A stretch of DNA of 64,000 nt from a virus (lineage: Duplodnaviria; Caudoviricetes): positions 440 through 64,439 of IMG/VR virus record IMGVR_UViG_3300028832_000146. One strand, written 5' to 3'. The notes below the pieces were generated by a model. That model was not told the DNA's origin and did no database searches. It was given only the letters and a program-made list of their open reading frames with translations. Within the stretch, counting starts at the first letter, position 1, and every line of letters begins with the position of its first letter. This document shows, piece by piece, positions 3,026 through 64,000 of the stretch. Both the position numbers and the translations under genes were made by a program.

Positions 3026-3952
3026 ATGAAAAATTTGCTTTATGACTTTTTGCAATATTCCAAAGATATCAATTACAGATCAAGCGACACATTGGTTCAT
3101 TATAAATACGATATGTTAAAATTTATTGAATTCATGAAATACAAAAAATGAAAATTCGAAATAAACGTTGAAGATGTAAAATTCGCAGATTGTATTGAAC
3201 GGCTTGAAACATACAAAGAAAACAGAAAAGTTTCAAGAAGCACACTTTCAACATTATCAAATTCTTTACGCCAATTTTTCAAATACAGTGCAATGATCTG
3301 AAAAAAATTACAATTTAACGTTGAACAATTACCAATTATTAAAAAAGAACGCAAACCATACGATATGATGAAAAAAGAAGAATATGAAATATTGGTTCAA
3401 GCACCATTAATTTATGAAGAATCACCAATACTTGCAGAAAGGAATCAATTATTAATCGAAATACCATACAGAACATGATTACGCCGTGCAGAAATATTAC
3501 GTTGCAAATTCGAACATTTCCACAATGAAAACCGCCAATTCCAGATATTATGAAAAGGCGGTTATCATGATCGAGTATTTTTTACCGAAGATTTAAGAAA
3601 TAAAGTTTTGCATTTTGAAGAAAGTATAAAAGAATTCACAAAAAAAAGACCATTCAAAATGGATTTTTTATTTGTTTGATTAGATAATAAAAATCGATGA
3701 AAGCCACTTGCACCAAAATATATTAATATTTTATTCCGTAAATATTCCGAACATCTTATAAATGAATGAAAGATTACAAGAGTATTACACCCGCACATGG
3801 AACGCCACGCATTCGCCACAAATTGCGTTTATGCTTGATTAAGCCAGCAAGCAACAACACGTTTAATGCGTCACCGTGATCCAAAAACCACTGAATGATA
3901 TTATCACATGAATGATACATGGTTAAAATCACAATTTGATAAAATATCATAA
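3026..3952 (+). CDS. Tyrosine recombinase (XerC/D-like, 308 aa)
   Basis: TGLRRAE, GKGG, HPHMERHAFAT, MRHRDPKTTEGYY catalytic motifs. Confidence 0.9.
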
Positions 3953-4498: not shown

Positions 4499-5254
4499 AT
4501 GAATGAAGAATTAGAAAGAATTACGATTTTCAATTCTTATGTAAGAAGCATTGACCAGCTTGCAAGATGAGATATGCAACTTGCACAAGAGCTTTCTTAT
4601 TGGATCATTCAATTCTGAATTAAATGAATCGAGCCACCAGCAGATTCAAACCCGTTCATGCTTTCAGTATTCGAGCAAATCAAAGAGCCGTTAATGAATG
4701 GAAGAAAAAAATCAATGAACGGTAAAACAAAATCAAAATCAGATGAAGAAGAAATCAAAGAAGAAACGGAAATTGAAGAAAAAAAATCAAAACAAAATCA
4801 AAATGAAATCAAAACTGAATCAAAAGAAAATCAAAACGAAATCAAACCGTGACAAAATATAAAATATAAAAGAAAAAAGAAAAAAGAAGAAAATAATATT
4901 TCATTATCTAACGATAATGAAAGTGCAAGCACGGGAGATTATTGAGATTCAGAAATTAACGAATGTTTGGAAATTATTAAATCGTTTAATGGTTGAATAA
5001 TTGATTGAACACAAAAATCAAATCGTATTCGGTGAAAAAATTTAATTTGAAAACTTAAAAAATCGGAATTTGTGCAAAATCAGAATTACACACGGCAAAA
5101 CACTTTAACGGCGGTGTTGAACGTGGTTGCACAAAACAAGTTTTATGTGAGCAAGATTACATCACCAGAATTGATTTATAAAAATTTAGCAATTTTATTT
5201 CAAGTTTGCAGACAAGAATGAATGAATCAAACACCACAAATTGAAGTGCTTTAA
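4499..5254 (+). CDS. Putative replication initiator
   Basis: Conserved N-terminus, repetitive AAATCAAAA-rich centre, divergent C-terminus; first gene of the early operon. Confidence 0.6.
4725..4848 (+). repeat. Iteron-like AAATCAAAA repeats inside the initiator gene
   Basis: Several tandem aaatcaaaa/gaatcaaaa units; similar run at 36030-36085. Confidence 0.5.
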
Positions 5255-7949: not shown

Positions 7950-8366
7950 ATGGAAACACCAAAAAATCAAGGGGGGGGGGAGACTTTACAAACCTTTACT
8001 GTAAATCCAGCATTTCTTCTACAAGATATGCCAATTGATTTCTTTGACTTTCAATTCATCATGAATGCAGATTGAACATTAAAGGAAACAAAATTTAAAG
8101 ATCAGATTTTAGAACCAGCAATTTGAAGTTCATTATTCTTAATTAAAGAGAAATACTTCAAAAAGGTAAAACAACATAAAATTGACAAAAAGAAGATTGA
8201 AAGCCACAAACAAGAAAAAGAAAACATGCTGAACGCATGGAAAATTCAAAAAGAACATTATCAGTGACACATCAGATACCAAGAAAAAGCATTATGAGAA
8301 AAGAACAGATTATTAAAAGCAATATGATTAATTGCACACAATGTAGAAAAAGTAAATCAGAATTAA
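7950..8366 (+). CDS. Conserved hypothetical protein with a G10 tract at codons 8-11
   Basis: In frame through G7971-7980; homolog at 39149 also has G10. Confidence 0.8.
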
Positions 8367-10633: not shown

Positions 10634-10843
10634 ATGCAACAAAGTTTATTATCAGATTGAAAAAAGCAATTCTTTTATGAAAGCTGGTTGAATAACAAAA
10701 CCGCAAGAGACCAGAAAGAAAAAGAAGTAAAAGCAAGATGATATAAAGAAATCCACAAATGACAATATAATTGTCAGGGGGGGGACAATTTATTTCTTAA
10801 CTTGGAGATAGCATGCCAAAAAAAGTATACCGCAAGGATTTAA
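10634..10843 (+). CDS. Hypothetical protein with a G9 tract, unit A only
   Basis: ORF crosses G10777-10785 and overlaps the next gene by 31 nt. Confidence 0.5.
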
Positions 10844-11193: not shown

Positions 11194-11260
11194 TTTGCAT
11201 TCTACGAGACAATAATTATATTTTGTGTATGCATAAGTAATTATTGTTTTGTAGAACCTT
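11194..11260 (+). promoter_or_regulatory. Promoter with operator-like motifs upstream of the NinG-like gene
   Basis: TTGCAT..TATATT, then ATGCATAAGTAA and TTGTAGAACCTT; conserved at 43069-43100. Confidence 0.55.
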
Positions 11261-11287
11261 TGATTTAATTCAAAGGTGTTTTCATTT

Positions 11288-11749
11288 ATGCCAAAGAAAG
11301 CCAAAAAACCAAAGATTGATAAAAAAAAGCTGAATGATGAAAATGTAGAAATTGCAAAATTAATTGCAAAAGCAAGAGATCATTATACATGCCAGCATTG
11401 TTGAAAAACAATCAAAGAAACAGCAATACATGCAAGCCACATAATTAATGAAGCAAGAGATCACAGACTTGCAAGTGATCCATACAACATAAAAGCATTA
11501 TGTTATAATTGCCACATAAATCGGCGACATAAAAACCCAATAGAAGCAAGTCAATGGTTTAACGAAAAGCGACCGTGAAGATATGAAGAATTGCAAGCCA
11601 AACATATCGAATACATGTGAAAGTGAAGCATTGATGTAATCCGAATGATTGAAAGAAATCAAGAGTTAAGGAAAACATGTGCAGAATTGAAAATCGATAT
11701 TTCAAAGTTCAAGTATGGTGCAAAAATTTATAATGATAAAGAGTGATAA
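11288..11749 (+). CDS. ninG: NinG/Rap-like HNH nuclease
   Basis: CQHCG..HASHII..NIKALCYNCHINWWHKNP (CGG CGA = WW). Confidence 0.75.
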
Positions 11750-11750
11750 A

Positions 11751-12230
11751 ATGCCAAAGCAAAAGCGAGATTATGAGAAAATAAAAATGGAATTCATGCT
11801 TTCTGATTTTGACGAAGTGAAATCATATATTACTCATAAATGAATCACATATAATGCAGAACGAACGAGACGCACAAAATGACGGTGAAAAGAAAAACAA
11901 GAACGGAAGAAAAAAATATACATGGAAGCATTAAAGAAGAAATGAAAAGAAGCAGTTGATGATGTTTCAAAAAAATTGGAACGTTACGAAATGCTTTGAG
12001 ATGAAATATTACAACGAATGGAAGAACAATTTAATCCAGTTGGTGAAGATTGAAAGCCAAGAAAGATAAACAGCAACGATATAATGAATATATGGAAAAT
12101 CAAAAGAACGGAAATGTGATTACCAACCAACATTTCAAAAACCGAAAACACAAACAAGGACGAAAGATCAGAATTAACAGATGATGAAAAAGAAGCATTA
12201 AAAGAAATATTGAAAAAGTCAAGCAAATAA
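11751..12230 (+). CDS. terS: Terminase small subunit (putative)
   Basis: Directly upstream of TerL; KWDY..KGWGKEK N-terminus; homolog at 45216. Confidence 0.65.
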
Positions 12231-27580: not shown

Positions 27581-30010
27581 ATGACGTTTGTAAAATTCCA
27601 AAACAGTAATAATGCAAACAGCACCATGATTGCGGACATATCAGCAAGTGCAACAGCATTATTAATAAAAGATTGAGATCAATCTTTATTTCCAACCACA
27701 TTTCCATTTCTTTTAACACTTGAACATCTTGATTCAGATTGAAATGTAACTTTACGTGAAATCGTAAAAGCAACAGCAAGCAATCAGAATTCATATACAA
27801 TTGTTAGATGAGCTTGAACATGCGTTCAAGATGATACGGCTTCAAATAGAAGTCAAGATAATACAGCACACGCATTTTATGCTGGTGACAGAGTTTCACT
27901 TTATCGAACAGCAGAACAAGTAAAAGATATTCAAGATAAACTTGAAACAAGTGCAAATGATACAGCAATTGCAAGCGAATATGACAGCACAGCAACATAC
28001 GATGTTGATGATGTTGTTATGTATAAATGAGATCGTTATGTATGCAATACAGCCGTTTCGGTTGCAGAAGCTTTTGATTCAACAAAATGGACAAAAGTTT
28101 CAGTTCAATATGATCTTGATACAATGCAAACAGAAATTGACGATTTGGCAAGTCAAAGTGGTGCAAGTGATCATTTGGAAGATGAATGATTGGTTGGTTC
28201 TTATTATGAATTAACAGATACAATGTTTCGTCAATTAACAACAACATATGATAATGCAAGCGTTGACGCAAACGTTGGAGATGTAAACGCAAATACAGAA
28301 TTACATATTCAAAGGCAAGGTTCTTGAACAGCAAGCAACCAATTAAAATTAAAAGTAAAAATGTGATGATCACCAACAACAAGTTTAATTATTGAAGTAA
28401 GAAAATGAGTTTCAGTAATTAATACAAATAAAAAAACTTCATATTGGTATGGTGATTCAAATAATGTAATTGCAAGTGCAACATTACCATATACAACTTT
28501 TTCTTCAAGTTACCAAGAAATAACAGTTGCTTTGGACAATTCTTTTGGTTGAACTGAATGAGAATTGCTTGATATTGTGATTTATCAAGCAAATCACATC
28601 GTAAATGCAAGTAACTATTATGTTATTGCTTGCGATTCAACACAGCAATCAGACGCATTCCAATATTTGAAAATTGCAAATGATCTTGAAACAGTAAAAC
28701 AAAGTGGTGAAATTCCATATTGTGTTTCAGATTGATTCGCAAATATATTATTAACAAGAGTTACAACGGCTGGTGCGTATGCTTTACCAAGAAATTTAAA
28801 AACGCTTTGAGAAAAAGCAAAATTAACAACATTTTGAAGACATACGGATTGAGTTTGGCTTGATCATAAAGATGAATCAAACATCGAATATGTGCATGGT
28901 GGTTATAAAACATATACTGTTAAACGATCTGAAACTTCAACACCAACATCAGCATTCGTTGAATATGCAGATGACGCAGAATGATTAACACAATGAAGTT
29001 CAGATTTCGATACATTCTTTGGTTTCTCATGAGTAAGATTAACAGCTTCATGATTAGAATCATGAACAGTTGATTTAACAAGCATGAGTTCGCAAAGTGG
29101 TTTAACTTCATGAGATAACGTTATGGTAAAATTCCCAATACGTGGAATAAAAATGACAAAATCTTGAAGCACAGTTACACTTTCAATTACAAACAATCCA
29201 AATGCAGAAGATGAATGATTCCAATATTTCGCACATTCAAGATGAACATTATCAAATCCAATCAAGAAAAGTGCATTTTATCTTTGAGTTTATGAATGAA
29301 GTCTTTCAAGTTCAGTTTTAAAATCTCTTTCATGAGCAACCGTTGAAGCTTCACATACAATGCAAGAATTCATAAATTATGCACGTGCAAATGATAGCAA
29401 TGATTGAACGGCTTGATATGATATCGTTTGATTCTACCAAAGAATGTATATCAATGCATTATACATGATGAAATATTGTTCTTTGAATACACAATGAGTA
29501 ATTGGACAATGAATCGTTTCATGATCAAAGCAAGCTTCATGATGAAGTAATTCAATTGCATGAGTTACTGGTGGTGATACATCATGAACAACAAGTTACA
29601 TGAAATTATTCTGACTTGAAAACTGGTGGTGAAATGTTTCTGAATGGCTTGGTTGATTATGCACGGATTGAAGCAAGAATCTTTATACAGCTTTGAGTGG
29701 TTTTGTTGGAGATATTAAAACAACTTCACCATACGAAAACACTTGAACAACAATTTCACATTCATGATCATATTATTGTTTATCAAGTATTGCATGAAAT
29801 AATAAAGCAATGTTTGCACCGCTTGCAACAGTAAACAATTCAAATTACAACACATATTATAGCGATTATGCGCGTGTGGATGCTTTTTGTTTGGCTCATG
29901 CCGGTGGTAGTTATGGTGTTGGTGCTAATGCTGGTGCTTTCTATTTGACTGTGAATACTTCCGCTTCGAATTCGTATGCGAGTATCGGTTCTCGCTTAAT
30001 GTTCCTTTAA
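27581..30010 (+). CDS. Receptor-binding/tail fibre protein, DGR target, 809 aa
   Basis: Baseplate-anchor N-terminus, YDSTATYDVDDVVMYKG CBM-like motif, CLec-type LFGLENWWGNVSEW, C-terminal VR. Confidence 0.85.
29861..30010 (+). repeat. DGR variable repeat VR-A
   Basis: Aligns to 30406-30555 with 17 mismatches at TR adenines and 2 non-A mismatches before the IMH. Confidence 0.95.
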
Positions 30011-30036
30011 ACGAGCGATAGCGAAGTTCCCCTTTC

Positions 30037-30053
30037 CCGCCGTTTATCGGCGG
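30037..30053 (+). promoter_or_regulatory. GC-rich hairpin downstream of VR/IMH
   Basis: CCGCCG-TTTAT-CGGCGG; B has compensated CCGTCG/CGACGG at 63439-63454. Confidence 0.8.
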
Positions 30054-30104
30054 TCAACCACTTCAACTCTGCCGAAGGCTTTTACATCATGCAAATAAAA
30101 AAAT

Positions 30105-30284
30105 ATGAAAATAACGATCAATATTGAAAAAGAAGAAAAACAACCAATTGAATATGAATTGGATTGTTACGGTCAATGGAGTAAAACGGAATATTCGGAA
30201 GATGAAGTAATAATAAATATTCATGAAAAAGAAGAAGATAAACCAAAAACAAAATATGAAAACAAAAAAGGAATGGGGTATTAA
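30105..30284 (+). CDS. Small ORF between VR and TR (not Avd-like), 59 aa
   Basis: MKITINIEKEE..; positional counterpart at 63504. Confidence 0.55.
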   Translation: MKITINIEKEEKQPIEYELDCYGQWSKTEYSEDEVIINIHEKEEDKPKTKYENKKGMGY

Positions 30285-30405
30285 AGCCCCGTTCCTTTGG
30301 GTTATATGGTCGGAAGCGAGTATAAAATATAAACGTTTTCGCCTTTGTTGGCTATACAAAAAAGTGGACGAAACCATGTATAAGCTCAATGGGGTAAGTA
30401 ACAAA

Positions 30406-30555
30406 AGCGATAATGCGAATGTGAATGCTTCTCGTTTGGCTCATACCAGTGGTAATTATAGTAATGGTGCTAATGCTGGTGCTTTCTATTTGAATGTGAA
30501 TAATTCCACTTCGAATTCGAATACGAATATCGGTTCTCACTTAACGTTCTTTATA
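30406..30555 (+). repeat. DGR template repeat TR-A
   Basis: AAT-rich copy of VR-A, upstream of the RT. Confidence 0.95.
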
Positions 30556-30790
30556 AATTCCCTATTTTAATTCAAAACCTATGATGTGCTTGATTTTTCC
30601 CAAAAGGTGAAATCAAGATGTGTTAAATGATAGCTATATAACCCCGCCTCTTGGCGAAACATAAAATTACTGGGGAGATCGTATTGGTAATTATATTCAT
30701 ATAAACCACTTGGTATTAACAATGTTTATCACTAAATATAATGAATGTTCGATTGTAAAGGAACATTATAGGTAAAAAACAAAAGCATAA

Positions 30791-35770: not shown

Positions 35771-36496
35771 ATGAATGATGAATTAGAGAGAATTACAATT
35801 TTCAATTCTTATGTAAGAAGCATTGACCAGCTTGCAAGATGAGATATGCAACTTGCACAAGAGCTTTCTTATTGGATCATTCAGTATTGAATTAAAGGGA
35901 TTGAACCGCCGGCAGATTCAAACCCATTCATGTTGAGTGTGTTCGAGCAAATCAAAGAACCATTAACAGCATGAAGAATGAAATCAAAGAATGCGAAAAA
36001 AGAAATCAAAGAAGAAACGGAAAAAGAAAACAAAAAATCAAAACAAAATCAAAATGAAATCAAAACGAAATCAAATGAAAATCAAACCGTGAGAAAAGAT
36101 AAAAGAGAAAAGATAAAAGAAAAAGAAAATAATATTTTATCTTCTATCGAAGATAAAAGTACAAGCACGGTTGAATATGGAAACGAAGAAGTGAACGAAT
36201 GTTTGAATTTAATTAAATCGTATAACAACGGAATATGTAATTGAACGGTTAAAAAATCAAGACAATATGCAACGCTTTTAATTGCGAAAATTAAGAAAAT
36301 CGACGGCGTGCAAAATTGAACAATTAAACGGCAAGAAGTTTTAAAAATGATATTGGAAGTTTGAAAAAACGACGAATACCACAGCACAAAAACAACATCG
36401 CCGGAATTAATATTTTACAACCTTGCAACATTAATGGAAGTATGCAGAAAGCAATTTAAAAAACAGCAAGGACAAAAAGTTTTTACCGCTTTATAA
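35771..36496 (+). CDS. Putative replication initiator
   Basis: Homolog of 4499-5254. Confidence 0.6.
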
Positions 36497-39148: not shown

Positions 39149-39565
39149 ATGGAAACACCAAAAAATCAAGGGGGGGGGGACGAATTAAACGAATTCACAG
39201 TAAACCCAACGTTTTTATTACAAGACATGCCAGTGGATTTCTTCGATTTCCAATTCATAATGAATGCAGATTGAACATTGAAGGAAACAAGGTTTAATGA
39301 CCAAGTTCTTGATCCAGCAATTTGAAGCAGTTTATTCATTATTAAAGAGAAATATTTCAAGAAAATTAAACAGCATAAAATGGATAAAAAGAAACTTGAA
39401 AGCCACAAAGAAGAAAAACAAAGAATGATTGACGCATGGAAACAAAAAGAGCACAATTATCAAGGACATATAAGGTATACAGAAAAAGCATGCGGTGAGC
39501 AAAAACGTTTATTATTAGCAATTGGAATGATTGCACACAATACAAAGAAAAGCCAAGAAATTTAA
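39149..39565 (+). CDS. Conserved hypothetical protein with G10 tract
   Basis: G39170-39179 in frame; homolog of 7950. Confidence 0.8.
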
Positions 39566-42961: not shown

Positions 42962-43128
42962 AAGAAAGCCAAAAATTTTAACATGAAATAATGAATATGT
43001 TAAAAAATTTAACATGAAAAGAAAAAATAAGATTTTGAAAACAGCAAGGATTTAATTATATTATTTGTATGCATAAGTAATTAAATTCTTGTAGAACCTT
43101 TGATTTATATTCAAAGGTGTTTTCATTT

Positions 43129-43578
43129 ATGCTAAAAAAAGCCAAAAAACCAAAAATTGATAAAAAAAAATTGAATGATGAAAATGTGGAAATTGCCAAA
43201 TTAATTGCAAAGGTAAGGGATAAATACACATGCCAGCATTGTGGAAAAACAGCCAAAGAAACAGCAATTCATGCAAGCCACATAATAAATGAAGCAAGAG
43301 ATCATAGACTTGCCAGCGATCCGGAAAACATAAAAGCGTTATGTTATAATTGCCACATAAATTGGCGACATAAAAGCCCGATTGAAGCAAGCGAATGGTT
43401 TAATAAAAAGCGACCATGAAGATATGATAAATTGCAAGAAAAACACGTTGAATATATGGGTAAATGAAGCATTGACGTAATACGAATAATTGAAAGGAAT
43501 AAATGGTTAAGGGAAATTTGCGAAGAAATGAAAATTGATATTTCAAAATTCAAGTATGGTGCAAAAATTGATTTATAA
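43129..43578 (+). CDS. ninG: NinG/Rap-like HNH nuclease
   Basis: Homolog of 11288; TGG CGA = WW. Confidence 0.75.
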
Positions 43579-43594
43579 TTAAACAAGGGAAACA

Positions 43595-44212
43595 ATGGAA
43601 ATAATAAATAAAAAAATCGATGAATTAATACCGTATGAATACAACAATAAAAAACATGATGAAACGCAAGTAAACAGAATCGCAAATTCAATAAAGGAAT
43701 TTGGATTTACGCAACCGGTGGTAATTGATAAAAATAACGTGGTAATTATTGGACACGGAAGATTGGAAGCGAGCAAAAAATTATGATTAAAAGAAATTCC
43801 ATGTGTAAAAATGGAAGATTTAACGGAAATACAAGTAAAGAAATTAAGAATATTGGATAATAAATTGAATGAATCAGAATGGGATTTGGAAAACTTGCAA
43901 TACGATTTGGCGACAATTCCGGATTTCAATATTGGGGAATTGGAAATAAATGTTGATGATCTATTCGATGATTTGTTTCCAGTTGATCCGGACGAATTGG
44001 ACGATAACTTTTCATTGCCAAGCGGAGAAAAAGCACCATTTGGACAAATAACGTTTACGCTTGCCGACGAACAGAAAAAAGAAATTGAAGAAGCAATAAA
44101 GAAGGTAAAGGAAACAGATTTGTATAAAAGCCAAATGAATTATGGAAACGAAAACAGCAATTGAAACGCTTTATATTGTATTGTGAGCCAATGGATAGCG
44201 TTAAATCAATAA
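43595..44212 (+). CDS. ParB-like nuclease (ParBc) domain protein, unit B only
   Basis: IPYEYNNKKH..SIKEFGFTQPVVID..IIGHGRLEA..LRILDNKLNE. Confidence 0.85.
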
Positions 44213-44857
44213 TTGTAAAAGTGATTCCAAGTAAAATTGCAAATGAATTCGTAAAAAAGCACCATTATTCATGAAAGGTTGTGCCAAATTCACAGTTGCA
44301 TTTCGGGTGCTTTTTAAACTGAATCTTGGGGGGGGGTTCTCTCTTATTGACCAAGCACAGATAAAAGCAAATTAATTGGGTTGGTGGAGTGAACCGAACG
44401 AAACGAATTTATCGAATTAAACCGCATGGCTTTCAGTGATGTGTTGCCAAGAAATAGCGAATCAAGGTGCATTGCAATAACAATAAGAATGATAAAAAAG
44501 CAAGCACCACAAATAAAACGAATAATAAGCTTTGCGGACGGTTGCCAATGTGGAGATTGAACAATATATCGTGCAAGTGGGTTTGAATTAACACAAATAA
44601 ACCAAAACAGATGATTAAGGGTTGATGAAAATGGTAAAGTTTACAGCCAAGTAACATTCTCCGCACATAAACCAAACGAAATGGATAAATTCAGAAAAAT
44701 GGAAAAAATTGACGGCTTCATGTTGAGATATATAAAATTATTAAAACCAAACTTAAAAAGAAATTATGAAATAATCCCATATTCAGAAATAGACAATTAT
44801 GGTGCGTGAATGTATAAAGGGGAAAAGGTAACAAGAAAAGAAAGACACACAAAATAA
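44191..44857 (+). pseudogene. mom: Mom-like adenine-modification enzyme, frameshifted at a G9 tract (G8 restores a 221-aa ORF)
   Basis: FVKKHHYSGKVV..HFGCF / GVLSYG..IELNRMAFSD..PRNSESR..KWIISFADG.QCGDGTIYRASGF; ATG-to-TAA span is 667 nt (3n+1). Confidence 0.8.
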
Positions 44858-44873
44858 AAAAAGTGTGTGTTAT

Positions 44874-44947
44874 GCGTGCGTGGTGTAATGGTTGCATGTT
44901 CACATTCCAGTGGAAGGAGAAAGTTCAAATCTTATCCGCACGCTCCA
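44874..44947 (+). tRNA. Atypical tRNA-Gly(TCC)-like gene directly after the Mom-like gene
   Basis: Acceptor GCGTGCG/CGCACGC, U73, encoded CCA, TTCAAAT T-loop, TCC at 44906-8; imperfect anticodon and T stems. Confidence 0.75.
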
Positions 44948-44973
44948 TTTAATAATTTAATTCAAAAAGAAAC

Positions 44974-45195
44974 ATGGACAAACAGCAAATGGAAAAAGAA
45001 ATTAAAAGGTTGAATAAATTGGTGTGCCAACAAGAAATTGAATATCACCAATTATTGAGAACCGCAAAAAGAGTTGAGAAAAATTACGAAAATTTGGAAT
45101 GGATCGTAAAGGTTGCAATAAACATGGCGTATGATAAAGACGAAAACGAAGCAATCGATTTCTTAACCAAACAATTTACAAGACATAAAATTTAA
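44974..45195 (+). CDS. Coiled-coil hypothetical protein, unit B only
   Basis: 73-aa ORF between the tRNA and TerS. Confidence 0.65.
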   Translation: MDKQQMEKEIKRLNKLVCQQEIEYHQLLRTAKRVEKNYENLEWIVKVAINMAYDKDENEAIDFLTKQFTRHKI

Positions 45196-45215
45196 TTGGT
45201 AACGCATAAATAAAA

Positions 45216-45674
45216 ATGCCAAAGCAAAAGCGAGATTGGAACAAGGTAAAATTGGAGTTTATTCAATCAGATTTCGACGAAGTGAAACAATTTATGCAAG
45301 ATAAATACAATATTTATAATTGAGAAATTGCAAAAAATACAAAGGGGCGGACAAAAGACAAAGTGGAACGGAAGAAAAAGATATTGGAAAAGGCGTTGGA
45401 GAAAAGTGCGAAAAAACAAGCGGATTCGTTGGAATTAACAATTGAATTCTTGAAGAAAGCAAAAAAGAACGCATTAATTAAAATTGCAAAACAAATAACA
45501 ACAAATGATTTAATGAGCGTAAAGGATTTGGTAAGGTGATTGTGAACAATAAAAACGGAATTGTGAGAACCAACGAAAATTACGAAAAATGAAAACATGA
45601 ATAAAGAAGAAAATGTGAGTTTAACGGACGAAGAATTGGAAGCTTTAAAAATTATATTAAAGAAAAACAAATAA
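45216..45674 (+). CDS. terS: Terminase small subunit (putative)
   Basis: Abuts TerL; homolog of 11751. Confidence 0.65.
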
Positions 45675-47141
45675 ATGGATTACAACGAAGCAATAAACAT
45701 ATTCAAGAAAAGCCCATTATTAAGAAAAACATATTTTTCAACCAATTTCTTTGACTTTTGTAAATTCTATTTCATGGAATATTACAACTTTGAAACGCCA
45801 AAGTGTTTGGAGAAATATTACAACGCATTGGAATCATGAAAAAATGTTTATTTCAAGTGATTCCGTGGAAGTGCAAAAACAACCATTGCCCAAATGTATG
45901 TTTCATATTGCATTGCATATAAAACACGCCGTAATATCATGTGGTATTCACAAACAATTGATAACGCCGAAGAAAATTTAACATACATTGCCAACAGCTT
46001 TATAAATGATACGGACGCATGAGAAAGATTTTGCAGAGATTATGGAAACTTGTATTATCCGGAAACAGTTATTAAACAGGGACAAAAGAAAATAAAAAGA
46101 ATTGATAAATTCGTAACAGAAAACAATTGTTATGTAAGAGCGATGTCACTTTGAACAAGCCCACGTGGTAAGAATTACACAGCACCGGACGGAAAATTCA
46201 GACCGGATTTGTTGGTGTTTGATGATGTGGATACGGTGCAAAGTTGCCAAAGCCGTAAGAAAATTGACAAAAACTTTGAATTCATGTTAAACGAAGTATT
46301 GGGTGGAACAACGGGAGCAACACAGATAATATTTTTATGAAATACGATATATGAAGATTGAATCGTGCCAAGGTTTGAAGAACATATAAAGAACGATCCA
46401 ACACGGGAAATTATAAATTTGCCAATATACGATGAACATAAAAATATTGTTTGGAATAGATTTGTGGAAACGGACGCAGAAGCAGAAAAATTGAATAAAT
46501 GAATACGTGAAATTGCGAAAAAATATGTTTCATTGGAAACGGAACGCAGAAGACTTGGAAGCATAAGTTTCAATCAGAATTATTTATTAATTCCATATAT
46601 GAATTGACAACATATAATAACAAGGGATATGATACAGCGGGATCATAATTGCAAGGGTTACAAATATGATTCAATTGTAATTGGTGTTGATCCAGCAGTA
46701 AGTGAAAAAGAAGGAACAGACAAATTCGCAATATGTGTAACATGAAAATTACAAGACAGATATTACGTATTAGAAAGTGTGGGATTAGAAGGAATGGAAA
46801 AGAATATTTGAAGGGCGAGCGAAACAGTGAAAAACTTATATAATAAACGAAAAGCAAAAAGGGTGATTGTTGAAACCGTTGCATATCAGCAAGTATTAAA
46901 AACAGTATTTGCGAACATGTGAATGGCGGTGCAAGAGCAAAAAACAATAAAAGATAAAACAACAAGATTAATGGAAAAGCAAATATTATTTGAAGAATGA
47001 CGTGTTTATTTCGCACCATGAAACGACGAATTAATTGACGAATTATTAATGTTTCCAAATGCGGAACATGACGATATGGTGGATTCAATGTTATTTACAA
47101 TGCAAGAAACAAGGAACAAGTTTTTTATTGCTTCATTCTAA
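45675..47141 (+). CDS. terL: Terminase large subunit
   Basis: Same motifs and length as 12313-13779. Confidence 0.92.
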
Positions 47142-60986: not shown

Positions 60987-63413
60987 ATGGTATTTGTGAA
61001 ATTCAGAAACACCAATAATGCAAGTTCAACACTTATTGCCGATATATCAGTAAGTGCAACAGCATTATTAATTAAAGATTGAGATCAATCTTTATTTCCA
61101 ACCAATTTTCCATTTCTTTTGACTTTGGAACATTTGGATTCAGAAGAAAATGTTATTTTAAGGGAAATCGTAAAAGTAACATGAAGTAACCAAAATTCAT
61201 TTACAGTTGAAAGAAGTGCGGGGGTTTGTGTTCAAGACGACACAGCTTCAAATAGAAGCCAAGACAACACAGCACATGCATTTTATTCATGAGATAGGGT
61301 TTCGCTTTATTGGACAGCCGAACAAGTAAGGGATATTCAAGAAAGATTGGAAACAAGCGTAAATGATCCAGCAATTGCGGACGAATACGATAATACAGCA
61401 ACATATGCAGTTTGAGATATTGTAATGTATAAGGGGGACAGATATTCATGCTCAACAGCCGTTTCAACACCGGAAGATTTTGACAGCACGAAATGGACAA
61501 AAATTTCGGTTGAATATAATCTCGATTCGCTTCAAACTCAAATTGACGATCTCGCAAGTCAAAGCGGTGCGAGTGACCATTTGGAAGATGAATGACTCGT
61601 TTGATCTTATTATGAAATAACTGATCCAATGTTCAGACAGTTGACAACAACTTATGACAACGCTTCAGTTGACGCGAACGTTTGAGATACAAACGCAAGC
61701 ACGGAAATTCATATTCAAAGACAAGGAAGCGGAACGGCAAGCAATCAATTAAAATTAAAAGTTAAAATGGCTTGATCACCAACAACAAGTTTGGTTGTCG
61801 AAGTAAGGAAATGAATTTCAGTTATAAATACGAATAAAAAAAGTTCTTATTGGTATTGAGACTCGAATAATGTTATTGCAACGGCTACTTTGCCATATAC
61901 AACATTTTCAAGTTCTTATCAAGAAATAACAGTTGCTTTAAATGAATCTTTTGGTTGAACTGAATGAGAATTATTGGACGTTGTTATTTATCAAGCAAGC
62001 CATATAGTAAACGCCAGCAATTATTATGTTGTCGCTTGCGATTCAACGCAACAATCCGACGCATTCCAATATTTAAAAATGGCGAACGATTACGAAACTA
62101 TAAAACAAACAGCGAATATTCCATATTGTGTTTCAGATTGATTCGCGAATATTTTATTGACAAGAGTTTCAACGACTGGTGCTTATGCGTTGCCAAGAAA
62201 TTTGAAAACATTATGAGAAAAAGCGAAGTTGACAACTTTGGGAAGACATACGGACGGGGTTTGGTTGGATCATAAATCCGAAGACACTATTGATTATATT
62301 CATTGATGATACAGCACATGGACGATTAAATGGTCTGAAACTTCAACGCCAGCGAGTGCTTTTGTAGATTACGAAGACGACGCAGAATGAATGACGCAAG
62401 GAAGTTCAGACTGGGACGCAATTTTCGGTTTTGAGTGAGTAAGATTAAACACTTCTTGAGTTGAAACTTGAAGCGTAGATTTAACAAATATGTCGAGTGA
62501 ATCATGATTGACTTCATGAGATAATGTTATGGTAAAATTTCCTATTCGTTGAATTAAAATGACAAAAAGTGGTTCAACTTGCACTTTATCAATAACAAAT
62601 AATCCAAACGCCGAAGACGAATGATTTCAATATTATGCACATTCTCGTTGAACTTTATCAAGCCCAGTAAAGAAAAACGCCTTTTATTTATGAGTTTATG
62701 AATGAAGTCTTTCAAGTTCGGTTTTGAAATCTTTATCGGGTGCGACAGTCGAATCAAATCACACAATGTGAGATTTTATAGGTTATGCAAGGGCGAACGA
62801 TTGAAATTCTTGAAATGGTGGTTATGACATAGTTTGATTCTATCAAAGAATGTATATAAACGCTTTATATATGATGAAATATTGAAATATTGATTCTCAA
62901 TGAACTATCGGACAATGAATCGTTTCATGATCAAAACAAGCGTCATGATGAAGTAATTCAATTGCGGGTGCTACTGGTTGAAATACTTGAAATCAAACAA
63001 GCTACATGAAATTATTCGGACTTGAAAACTGGTGGTGAAATGTTTCTGAATGGCTTGGTTGAATTTGCACAGATTGAAGCAAAAATTTATGGACAGCACT
63101 TCAAGGATTCGCCGGAGATATAACAACAAGTTCGCCATACGAAAATACTTGAGTGACTATAACGACAACAAGTTGAAACGATCTTTCAAGTATATCATGA
63201 GATAATAAAGCTATGTTTGCACCGCTTTGAACGGTAAATAATTCAAGCTACAATACTTATTATTGCGATTATGTGTATGTGAGTGCTTCTTGTTTGGCTC
63301 GTGCCGGTGGTTATTATAGTATTGGTGCGCTTGCTGGAGCTTTCTTTTTGGATGTGAAGTATTCCGCTTCGAGTTCGAATACGGATATCGGTTCTCGCTT
63401 AATGTTCCTTTAG
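60987..63413 (+). CDS. Receptor-binding protein, DGR target, 808 aa
   Basis: Homolog of 27581 with C-terminal VR. Confidence 0.85.
63264..63413 (+). repeat. DGR variable repeat VR-B
   Basis: 18 mismatches at TR-B adenines and 2 non-A mismatches before the IMH. Confidence 0.95.
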
Positions 63414-63503
63414 CGAAGCGTAAGCGAAGCCCCCCTTTCCGTCGCTTGCGACGGTCAACCACTTCAACTCTGCCGAAGGCTTTTTACTTCACGCGATCAA
63501 AAA

Positions 63504-63695
63504 ATGAAAATAAATATTCAAATTGAAACAAACGACAAAAATCAAGAATATACTTTGTGACCTTATGGGGAGTGGGAACTCCCCAAAGAGTCCGAAGTAA
63601 ATATAATAATAAAAAATAATCCGTCCGAAGATGACATAAATCAAGAAGTCGAAAGAAGAATAAGGGAAAAGAAAATCAAGGAAATAAAAATATAA
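63504..63695 (+). CDS. Small ORF between VR and TR, 63 aa
   Basis: MKINIQIETND..; positional counterpart of 30105. Confidence 0.55.
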
Positions 63696-63805
63696 AAAAT
63701 TTTTGGGTTATATGGTCGAAGACGAGTTAAAAATTACGTTTTCGCCTTTGTTGGCTATACGACTGTAAACAAACCATGTATAAGCTCAATGGGGATTGTA
63801 AAAAT

Positions 63806-63955
63806 TGCGATAATGTGAATGTGAATGCTTCTCGTTTGGCTCATACCAGTGGTAATTATAGTAATGGTGCGAATGCTGGAACTTTCTATTTGAATGTGAA
63901 TAATTCCACTTCGAATTCGAATACGAATATCGGTTCTCACTTAACGTTCTTTATA
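63806..63955 (+). repeat. DGR template repeat TR-B
   Basis: Differs from TR-A at 5 positions. Confidence 0.95.
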
Positions 63956-64000
63956 AATTCCCTATTTTAATTCAAAACCTATGATGTGCTTGATTTTTCC

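Follow-up and report, generated by a model that had tools for sequence, protein, structure and literature searches.

The 64,000-nucleotide stretch of viral DNA analysed here (the window, nearly all of the 64,439-nt IMG/VR virus record IMGVR_UViG_3300028832_000146) contains two tandem, collinear phage genomes, A (~1-31384) and B (~31385-64000), which are 77-89% identical to one another. Genome B carries an insert that A does not have, situated in the intergenic space between an HNH endonuclease gene and a probable gene for the small terminase subunit (terS), and the genes from the insert onwards are ordered ParB, Mom, RNA, ORF73, terS, terL. Our analysis centers on the third of these, a 74-nt tRNA-Gly-like RNA encoded directly after a gene for a DNA-modifying enzyme of the Mom family. 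Comparison with related loci revealed that this RNA is a member of a covarying cloverleaf family tied to Mom genes, and we propose that it probably supplies the enzyme with glycine while standing apart from translation.

Structure of the Mom-adjacent RNA

The RNA starts 16 nt past the TAA stop codon of Mom (44855-44857) and opens with a perfect 7-bp acceptor stem that begins G1-C72, C2-G71, G3-C70 and is completed by U73 and an encoded CCA. Its D arm contains GG, its anticodon is UCC and A37 is present, and the glycine identity elements that the initial annotation had read at this place are all confirmed. The set of identity determinants described for glycyl-tRNA synthetase (GlyRS), G1-C72, C2-G71, U73, C35 and C36 (PMC7826273), is complete, and charging with glycine is predicted. 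The anticodon arm consists of a 5-bp stem and a 6-nt loop, AUUCCA, and the T arm of a loop, UUCAAAU, on a 5-bp stem whose 3' strand carries one bulged A. The same annotation had described the anticodon and T stems as mismatched or bulged; the bulge in the T stem is real, whereas the deviations are not random mismatches and the anticodon arm is a regular helix with a shortened loop.

The RNA departs from a canonical tRNA, as it does not have a 7-nt anticodon loop and its T stem is interrupted. The outcome of a tRNA-finder search, one of the checks proposed for this locus, thus depends on the settings: ARAGORN in default mode reported no tRNA in the 64-kb window, whereas relaxed ARAGORN returned exactly positions 44874-44947 as a tRNA-??? 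with a 6-nt anticodon loop. Rfam at E<=10 gave no tRNA at these positions and none in the whole record.

A covarying RNA family tied to Mom genes

The comparison set consisted of 80 viral contigs encoding the nearest Mom homologs (38-97% identity), of which L002-L004 were read by genetic code 25 and the remaining Mom loci by table 11. For 14 of the 80 loci ARAGORN called a tRNA-Gly or tRNA-??? directly after Mom, and inspection by eye together with a stem search found a GCG...CGC-UCCA element at the same place in about 60. When 43 distinct Mom-adjacent RNAs were aligned as cloverleaves, 94.4% of the cells paired, compared with 36-43% with slid partners, and changes on both sides were present in 19 of the 21 pairs. 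The acceptor stem had been used in selecting the sequences, but the D, anticodon and T helices had not, and these pair at 92%, 85% and 98%, respectively.

A covariance model built from this alignment (R1) matches the window RNA over its full length at 63.8 bits (E 4.6e-13), a score that is partly by construction as the window RNA is among the seeds; the identical RNA in the non-seed relative L210 obtains the same score. At E<1e-6, R1 matches the window and 66 of the 80 Mom loci, and it skips the ordinary tRNAs of Mom loci with the exception of a weak match to a tRNA-Leu (E 0.037). The match adjoins Mom in 65 loci, on the same strand in 63 and on the opposite strand, just after Mom, in two (L026:3624-3697 (-) and L080:3540-3614 (-)), and a further RNA lies about 750 nt downstream of Mom (L049:4249-4323). 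A scan that was blind to Mom, in which a pattern of the T arm and 3' end was run against the viral collection, yielded 71 testable places, and Mom ends just upstream of 37 of these and begins just downstream of 23, such that about 60 of the 71 are adjacent to a Mom gene. In the remainder, Mom is situated about 1.3 kb upstream in one case, and tblastn detected no Mom in the other ten. The co-occurrence of Mom homologs with such RNAs, which the initial annotation had named as a check, is therefore found in both directions, from Mom to RNA and from RNA to Mom. Because copies occur on the opposite strand, at a distance of ~750 nt and, in the 23 cases above, upstream of Mom, the side and orientation of the RNA relative to Mom are not fixed.

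Two architectures are seen in the family, with the RNA placed either after the Mom stop codon, as in the window, or within the last 60-130 nt of the Mom open reading frame (ORF). Protein-level conservation was considered as a source of the shared 3' sequence and rejected, since the helices covary and the tails that embedded RNAs add to the protein come after the conserved core of Mom, whose end is GAGMYKG; the conservation at the Mom 3' end is thus at the RNA level. A relic of an attP/tRNA integration site was likewise rejected, as the RNA is full-length, phage-internal and adjacent to Mom in many different backbones. On a quick tree of Mom proteins, loci with no RNA fall at four or more separate points among the RNA-bearing ones, with Mu and L077 on long branches, and this scatter suggests, provisionally, that the association of Mom with the RNA is old and has been lost repeatedly.

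Conserved and variable positions were counted over 48 distinct family members. G1, C2, G71 and C72 are invariant (48/48), as is the bulged A of the T stem (48/48), and C35 and C36 (47/48 each), U73 (44/48) and the encoded CCA (41/48) are nearly so. U33, which is nearly universal among decoding tRNAs, is kept in 20 members; base 34 is U in 25, A in 13 and C in 10; the anticodon loop measures 6 or 8 nt in nine; position 55 is G in 34; and the D arm is mostly missing in many. The conserved positions include the GlyRS determinants of PMC7826273, and the pattern as a whole is what would be expected if selection had acted on how well GlyRS, and perhaps Mom, recognises the RNA and not on decoding.

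These observations bear directly on the possibility of an ordinary phage tRNA-Gly(UCC) that serves the translation of phage genes. The cloverleaf, UCC, A37 and CCA are all present in the window RNA, and default ARAGORN calls about a dozen family members tRNA-Gly. We nevertheless consider this explanation highly improbable, given the 6-nt anticodon loop of the window RNA, a family in which U33 is mostly lost, base 34 varies, the T stem is bulged and the D arm is often missing, and the failure of the Rfam tRNA model to match. The RNA is, in addition, the sole tRNA-like gene in 64 kb, and a related Patescibacteria contig carries a canonical tRNA-Gly(UCC) that is quite unlike it, with none of the family's oddities and a score of 33 bits with R1.

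A probable glycine donor for Mom

The Mom protein of phage Mu is a GNAT enzyme that moves glycine from Gly-tRNAGly to the N6 of adenine in double-stranded DNA, accepting all three glycine isoacceptors and rejecting Gly-tRNAAla (Silva et al., Nat Commun 2026, PMC13219725); this is the biochemical work to which the initial annotation had referred, and it does identify Gly-tRNAGly as the donor. Against this background we consider it probable that the window RNA is charged by GlyRS, is unfit for the ribosome and acts as a glycine donor for Mom. Mom would be translated from an ORF whose start lies within the end of the ParB-like gene, and the RNA, as a derivative of tRNA-Gly, would be excised from the transcript and charged with glycine by the host GlyRS, whereupon Mom would take the glycyl group from the charged RNA. 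The 6-nt anticodon loop and the bulged T stem would keep the RNA off the ribosome and EF-Tu, the bulge being situated at the helix that EF-Tu reads, and DNA modification would in this way be spared competition with translation for Gly-tRNA. A G tract within Mom may serve as a slippage-prone on/off switch, of which the window would hold the off (G9) form. The sequences themselves establish the family membership, the structure of the RNA, its linkage to Mom and the length polymorphism of the tract; beyond that we infer the expression, processing and charging of the RNA, its evasion of EF-Tu, its use by Mom and the role of the ParB-like protein.

A dedicated, non-ribosomal glycine donor had been put forward at the outset from the window sequence. 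The proposal gains comparative support, in that the RNA belongs to a family linked to Mom that has kept the GlyRS marks and lost decoding features. Two parts of the earlier argument fall away. A host in which glycine tRNAs also decode TGA is an unneeded rationale, as the cultured hosts that we looked at (Escherichia, Psychrobacter and Pseudomonas) use the standard code, and the cassette would not be self-contained, as host GlyRS and RNA processing would still be required.

A number of observations count against the donor proposal. Mu Mom and two mined homologs are active in E. coli on host tRNA alone (PMC13219725), and R1 finds no RNA at 14 of the 80 Mom loci; because Mu-type enzymes work without the RNA and these loci do not have it, the RNA is at most accessory. 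It was absent from all four of the phages Mu, JD024, PX29 and PAN70 when these were examined. In the window itself Mom is frameshifted by its G9 tract, and the RNA taken alone prefers a rod (-20.9 kcal/mol) to the cloverleaf (-15.6 kcal/mol), with a z-score of -1.44. Production, processing and glycylation of the RNA are predictions from its sequence, and evasion of EF-Tu is suggested by the position of the bulge and by analogy. Finally, the RNA lies inside the Mom coding region in many relatives, where excision would cut the mRNA.

This last point also enters into a different explanation, in which the RNA is a cis-acting tRNA mimic within the mom-terS transcript that recruits RNase P/RNase Z, sets the ends of the mRNA and stabilises the message or limits toxic Mom, with no donation of glycine. 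In keeping with such a role, the element occupies a fixed position, either at the Mom 3' end or within it, and in ~40 of the distinct loci it shares sequence with the coding region, where processing would truncate the mRNA; a scan for promoters and terminators around the RNA gave nothing that stands out (no better than shuffles), and tight control of mom expression is known for Mu (PMC13219725). Processing mimics, however, need only an acceptor and T domain, whereas the near-invariant C35, C36, U73 and G1-C72/C2-G71 are synthetase marks, and copies that precede Mom, lie on the other strand or come two in tandem fit a trans-acting RNA. On balance we regard a cis-acting element as unlikely.

The tight linkage to Mom and the conserved recognition marks could also belong to a decoy or regulator, in which case the RNA would imitate tRNA-Gly, bind Mom, GlyRS or a host defence directed at tRNA and deliver no glycine, and phage tRNAs do offset host attacks on tRNA. 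Yet the conserved U73 and the CCA encoded by most family members fit a chargeable 3' end, and nothing points to a defence that targets tRNA-Gly in these hosts. As Mom requires the charged form of its tRNA (PMC13219725), we judge a decoy very unlikely.

The Mom gene and its G tract

Membership of the enzyme in the Mom family, for which the initial annotation had suggested a profile search, is borne out by scores of 108.6 bits for the C part and 36.5 bits for the N part against PF25680 (curated cut-off 27.1), and by further matches to phrog_1384 (1.1e-30) and PDB 8bv8 (1.4e-11). R111 and S124, catalytic residues shown to be essential in Mu Mom, are kept, with the ELNR and NSES motifs aligning residue for residue, and both motifs are invariant across 25 Mom homologs.

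The reading frame is not intact in the window. The N part (44191-44364) is in frame 1 and runs into a premature stop at 44362-44364, and the C part (44336-44857) is in frame 2; the G9 tract shifts the frame and G8 would restore it. The annotation had spoken of a G8 allele, but the tract in the window is G9 and Mom is hence out of frame, and for this reason the window copy is presumably off. In its G8 form the tract makes up codons 46-49 of Mom and encodes Leu-Gly-Gly-Val. The in-frame G8 allele is present in L002, L003 and sequencing run X3, out-of-frame G7 in L004 and run X12, and G9 in L210 as well as the window, and these alleles come from independent assemblies of near-identical genomes. 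The G8 relative L003 encodes an intact 231-aa Mom with every invariant motif present. Since a G9 run stands in a genome of 31% G+C, coincides with a Gly-Gly motif and occurs in three length alleles, the tract looks like a slipped-strand phase switch, with homopolymer assembly error possible in data drawn from contigs.

A broken Mom could alternatively signify that the window holds a decaying remnant, with a tRNA pseudogene that has no function beside it. The G9 frameshift would fit, as would the failure of default ARAGORN and Rfam to report the RNA, an energy minimum that is not a cloverleaf, and the fact that phage A and the relative L211 manage without the insert. We find this quite unlikely, because base for base the same RNA lies beside an in-frame G8 Mom in L002 and L003, the bulged A and odd anticodon loop are conserved hallmarks of the family, the AT-rich T stem retains all five pairs through compensatory changes, and the window Mom has no lesion besides the tract.

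Other poly-G runs were observed in these genomes. A G10 tract occupies codons 7-10 of a gene whose product starts METPKNQGGG (7971-7980 in A and 39170-39179 in B; G9 in L210), and a G8 tract follows an inverted repeat upstream of a gene starting MPKK... in A (10777-10784; G9 in L210, absent in B); the tracts of L210 are sited at L210:427 and L210:2755. Several length-variable G tracts seem to be used by this phage lineage. At the other end of Mom, directly before the RNA, lies an inverted repeat, ACACAC...GTGTGT (44845-44868), whose 12-nt A-rich loop contains the Mom stop codon, and it is retained in L002 with a G-U pair.

A probable ParB-like partner gene

The gene that precedes Mom encodes a ParB-like protein (33.2 bits against PF02195, cut-off 26.3) and is sited upstream of the modification gene and the terminase, its end being overlapped by Mom by 22 nt. 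By tblastn, 68 of the 80 loci have a ParB-like homolog immediately 5' of Mom, and among the 27 loci whose ORFs were checked most show an overlap of 7-33 nt between the two. In the L047 group the upstream place is filled by an ORF with a diverged, sub-threshold ParB_N, and three other loci without a homolog are truncated where their contig stops. For a phage DNA dioxygenase that works on double-stranded DNA, activation by a ParB-like protein was demonstrated in 2026 (PMC13229309). The partnership with Mom that had been suggested for this protein fits both that precedent and the conserved, overlapping gene pair, and from this synteny the ParB-like protein is probably an activator or targeting partner of Mom.

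Relation to known systems

The window enzyme and Mu Mom belong to the same family (PF25680) and are 34% identical over the core, with R111/S124 kept, and glycyl transfer is presumably shared. Mu, by contrast, draws on host tRNAs without a linked RNA and its partner gene is com and not a ParB-like gene, while the window Mom has a putative G-tract switch and uses TGA for glycine. The Mu Mom paper (PMC13219725) makes no mention of linked tRNA genes or ParB.

A further likeness is to the ssrA islands of Dehalococcoides, in which a conserved 76-bp 'pseudo-tRNA', tRNA-Gly-like and overlapping mom, was described together with the Mom homolog and a ParBc protein of ~210 aa (McMurdie et al., BMC Genomics 2011, PMC3146451). 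The same ParB/Mom/tRNA-Gly-like trio is present here and the 'pseudo-tRNA' is probably of the same RNA family, although it lies inside mom in bacterial integrative islands, whereas the window RNA follows the stop codon and is found in a phage. That report (PMC3146451) gave the 'pseudo-tRNA' no function, the tRNA dependence of Mom then being still undiscovered. Taking phages and islands together, we see about an even chance that a widespread Mom clade carries its own co-substrate gene, a chargeable tRNA-Gly derivative that acts solely as a glycyl donor, with a ParB-like activator and, in the Patescibacteria lineage, a poly-G switch. The bulged T stem, G55, loss of U33, and shortened loops or missing D arm would on this account amount to a reshaping for escape from EF-Tu and the ribosome, in a gene that often lies inside Mom.

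Our working model for the Mom-linked RNA, by analogy, is the set of non-proteogenic tRNAGly species NP1-NP3 of Staphylococcus aureus, which keep the GlyRS marks, bind EF-Tu weakly (Rietmeyer et al., NAR 2021, PMC7826273) and are preferred by the Fem glycyl-transferase through features of the D arm and T arm (PMC7826273). NP1-NP3 are cellular, feed peptidoglycan synthesis and have loops of normal size on stems without bulges; in contrast, the phage RNAs are more deformed, are linked to the gene of the enzyme and would feed DNA modification.

Placement of a ParB-like gene, and after it a gene for a DNA-modifying enzyme, shortly before the terminase genes is shared with ParB-terminase (ParB-Tls) phage loci (Iyer, Zhang, Aravind; BioEssays 2015, PMC4738411) and with ParB-dependent phage T-dioxygenases (O'Toole et al., PNAS 2026, PMC13229309). 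The enzymes in those systems are methyltransferases or iron/2-oxoglutarate (Fe/2OG) dioxygenases, whereas the ParB-Mom pair described here is known from synteny.

Among cultured phages, Psychrobacter phage vB_PmaS_Y8A (OQ059336) has the order antiterminator Q, hypothetical, ParB/sulfiredoxin protein, Mom homolog, two RNAs, terS, terL. Its Mom homolog (49.7% identity) is unannotated, as are both of its RNAs, which are tandem and D-arm-poor (L086:3018-3085 and 3090-3158). The presence of the same cassette in a cultured phage makes the donor idea directly testable.

To our knowledge, no enzyme other than Mom draws on a charged tRNA for modifying DNA, a finding that dates from no earlier than 2026. 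No link between such RNAs and Mom chemistry was found in the Mom mechanism papers or the literature that we searched. The RNA itself was noted in 2011 without a function; what is new is the idea of a dedicated non-ribosomal tRNA-Gly donor applied to viral DNA hypermodification. If it is true, viruses encode dedicated aminoacyl-donor RNAs for nucleic-acid chemistry, the Mom locus offers a natural, compact and possibly orthogonal tRNA-enzyme pair, and 'pseudo-tRNAs' that annotation pipelines have missed or dismissed are accounted for. The partitioning of the tRNA pool, known from staphylococcal cell-wall synthesis, would then extend to phage counter-defence, and the ParB-Mom pairing and the candidate G-tract switch would provide further testable layers of control.

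The insert and its surroundings

Alignment of A with B by blastn and the junction sequences revealed that the insert amounts to 1,643 extra bases in B, in place of 19 bases in A, with A 11213-11728 aligning to B 43053-43569 on the left and A 11748-11822 to B 45213-45287 on the right. The initial annotation had placed it between ninG and terS; the B-only insert is real, but the upstream gene is better described as an HNH endonuclease, its NinG/Rap match being the weaker one (Table 1). The insert is present at 98.7% identity in the relative L210 and missing from L211, and it is best explained as a mobile cassette for DNA hypermodification belonging to the ParB-terminase type of locus. Searches of Pfam and PHROG returned no family for the 73-aa ORF or for the probable terS, whose start lies in the right-hand aligned block.

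Table 1. Features in and around the insert of genome B (window coordinates)
Feature	Coordinates	Strand	Evidence
HNH endonuclease gene, left border of insert, common to A	43117..43578	+	PF01844 5.8e-6; phrog_589 8e-11; weaker NinG/Rap phrog_5034 2.1e-6
B-only insert (cassette)	43570..45212	+	blastn A vs B, junctions
ParB-like gene, ParB_N and conserved C-terminal region, TGA=Gly	43595..44212	+	PF02195 5.5e-8; phrog_620 5.5e-43
Mom-family gene, split by frameshift	44191..44857	+	PF25680 5.2e-9 (N part), 4.3e-31 (C part)
G9 homopolymer in Mom, candidate phase switch	44328..44336	+	length alleles G7/G8/G9
tRNA-Gly-like RNA, 74 nt	44874..44947	+	model R1 63.8 bits; relaxed ARAGORN; family covariation
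73-aa ORF, last gene of insert	44974..45195	+	ORF list; Pfam and PHROG without match
Probable small terminase subunit (position only), right border of insert	45216..45674	+	directly 5' of terL
Large terminase subunit	45675..47141	+	PF17289 1.6e-8; phrog_38 3.1e-59

Metatranscriptome contigs (2025 bovine gut) cover 43991-44292 and 44458-44657 only, which are parts of the ParB-like and Mom genes; they have a word depth of ~50, break ahead of the G tract, and may reflect DNA carry-over. None of these contigs extends over the tRNA-like RNA, which counts neither for nor against its expression.

Source record and host code

The record represents two prophages in tandem or, alternatively, two strains joined during assembly. 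Close relatives of the window phages are single contigs of ~32 kb (L210-L212) from gut metagenome bins, some of which are labelled Patescibacteria, and the insert region is present in bovine-gut and faecal metagenomes of 16 studies. TGA encodes glycine in this rumen phage, with long ORFs under table 25; the TGA codons of the ParB-like and Mom genes align to conserved glycines of homologs (e.g. KLG-KE, HHYSGK, FGPS, CGDGTIY, GAGMYKG), and in the relative L004 one of them is replaced by GGA.

In one Patescibacteria contig with a related phage (DETJ01000053.1), the end is occupied by a canonical tRNA-Gly(UCC), L213:20-96 (-), adjoined by a 320-aa ORF with 14 in-frame TGA codons, and this end may mark a site of integration. 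Genomes A and B contain, at homologous places, arrays with an 11-nt period (4770-4906 and 35999-36135), and near its end each genome has two 230-nt repeats spaced about 545 nt apart (29826-30600 in A, 63229-64000 in B).

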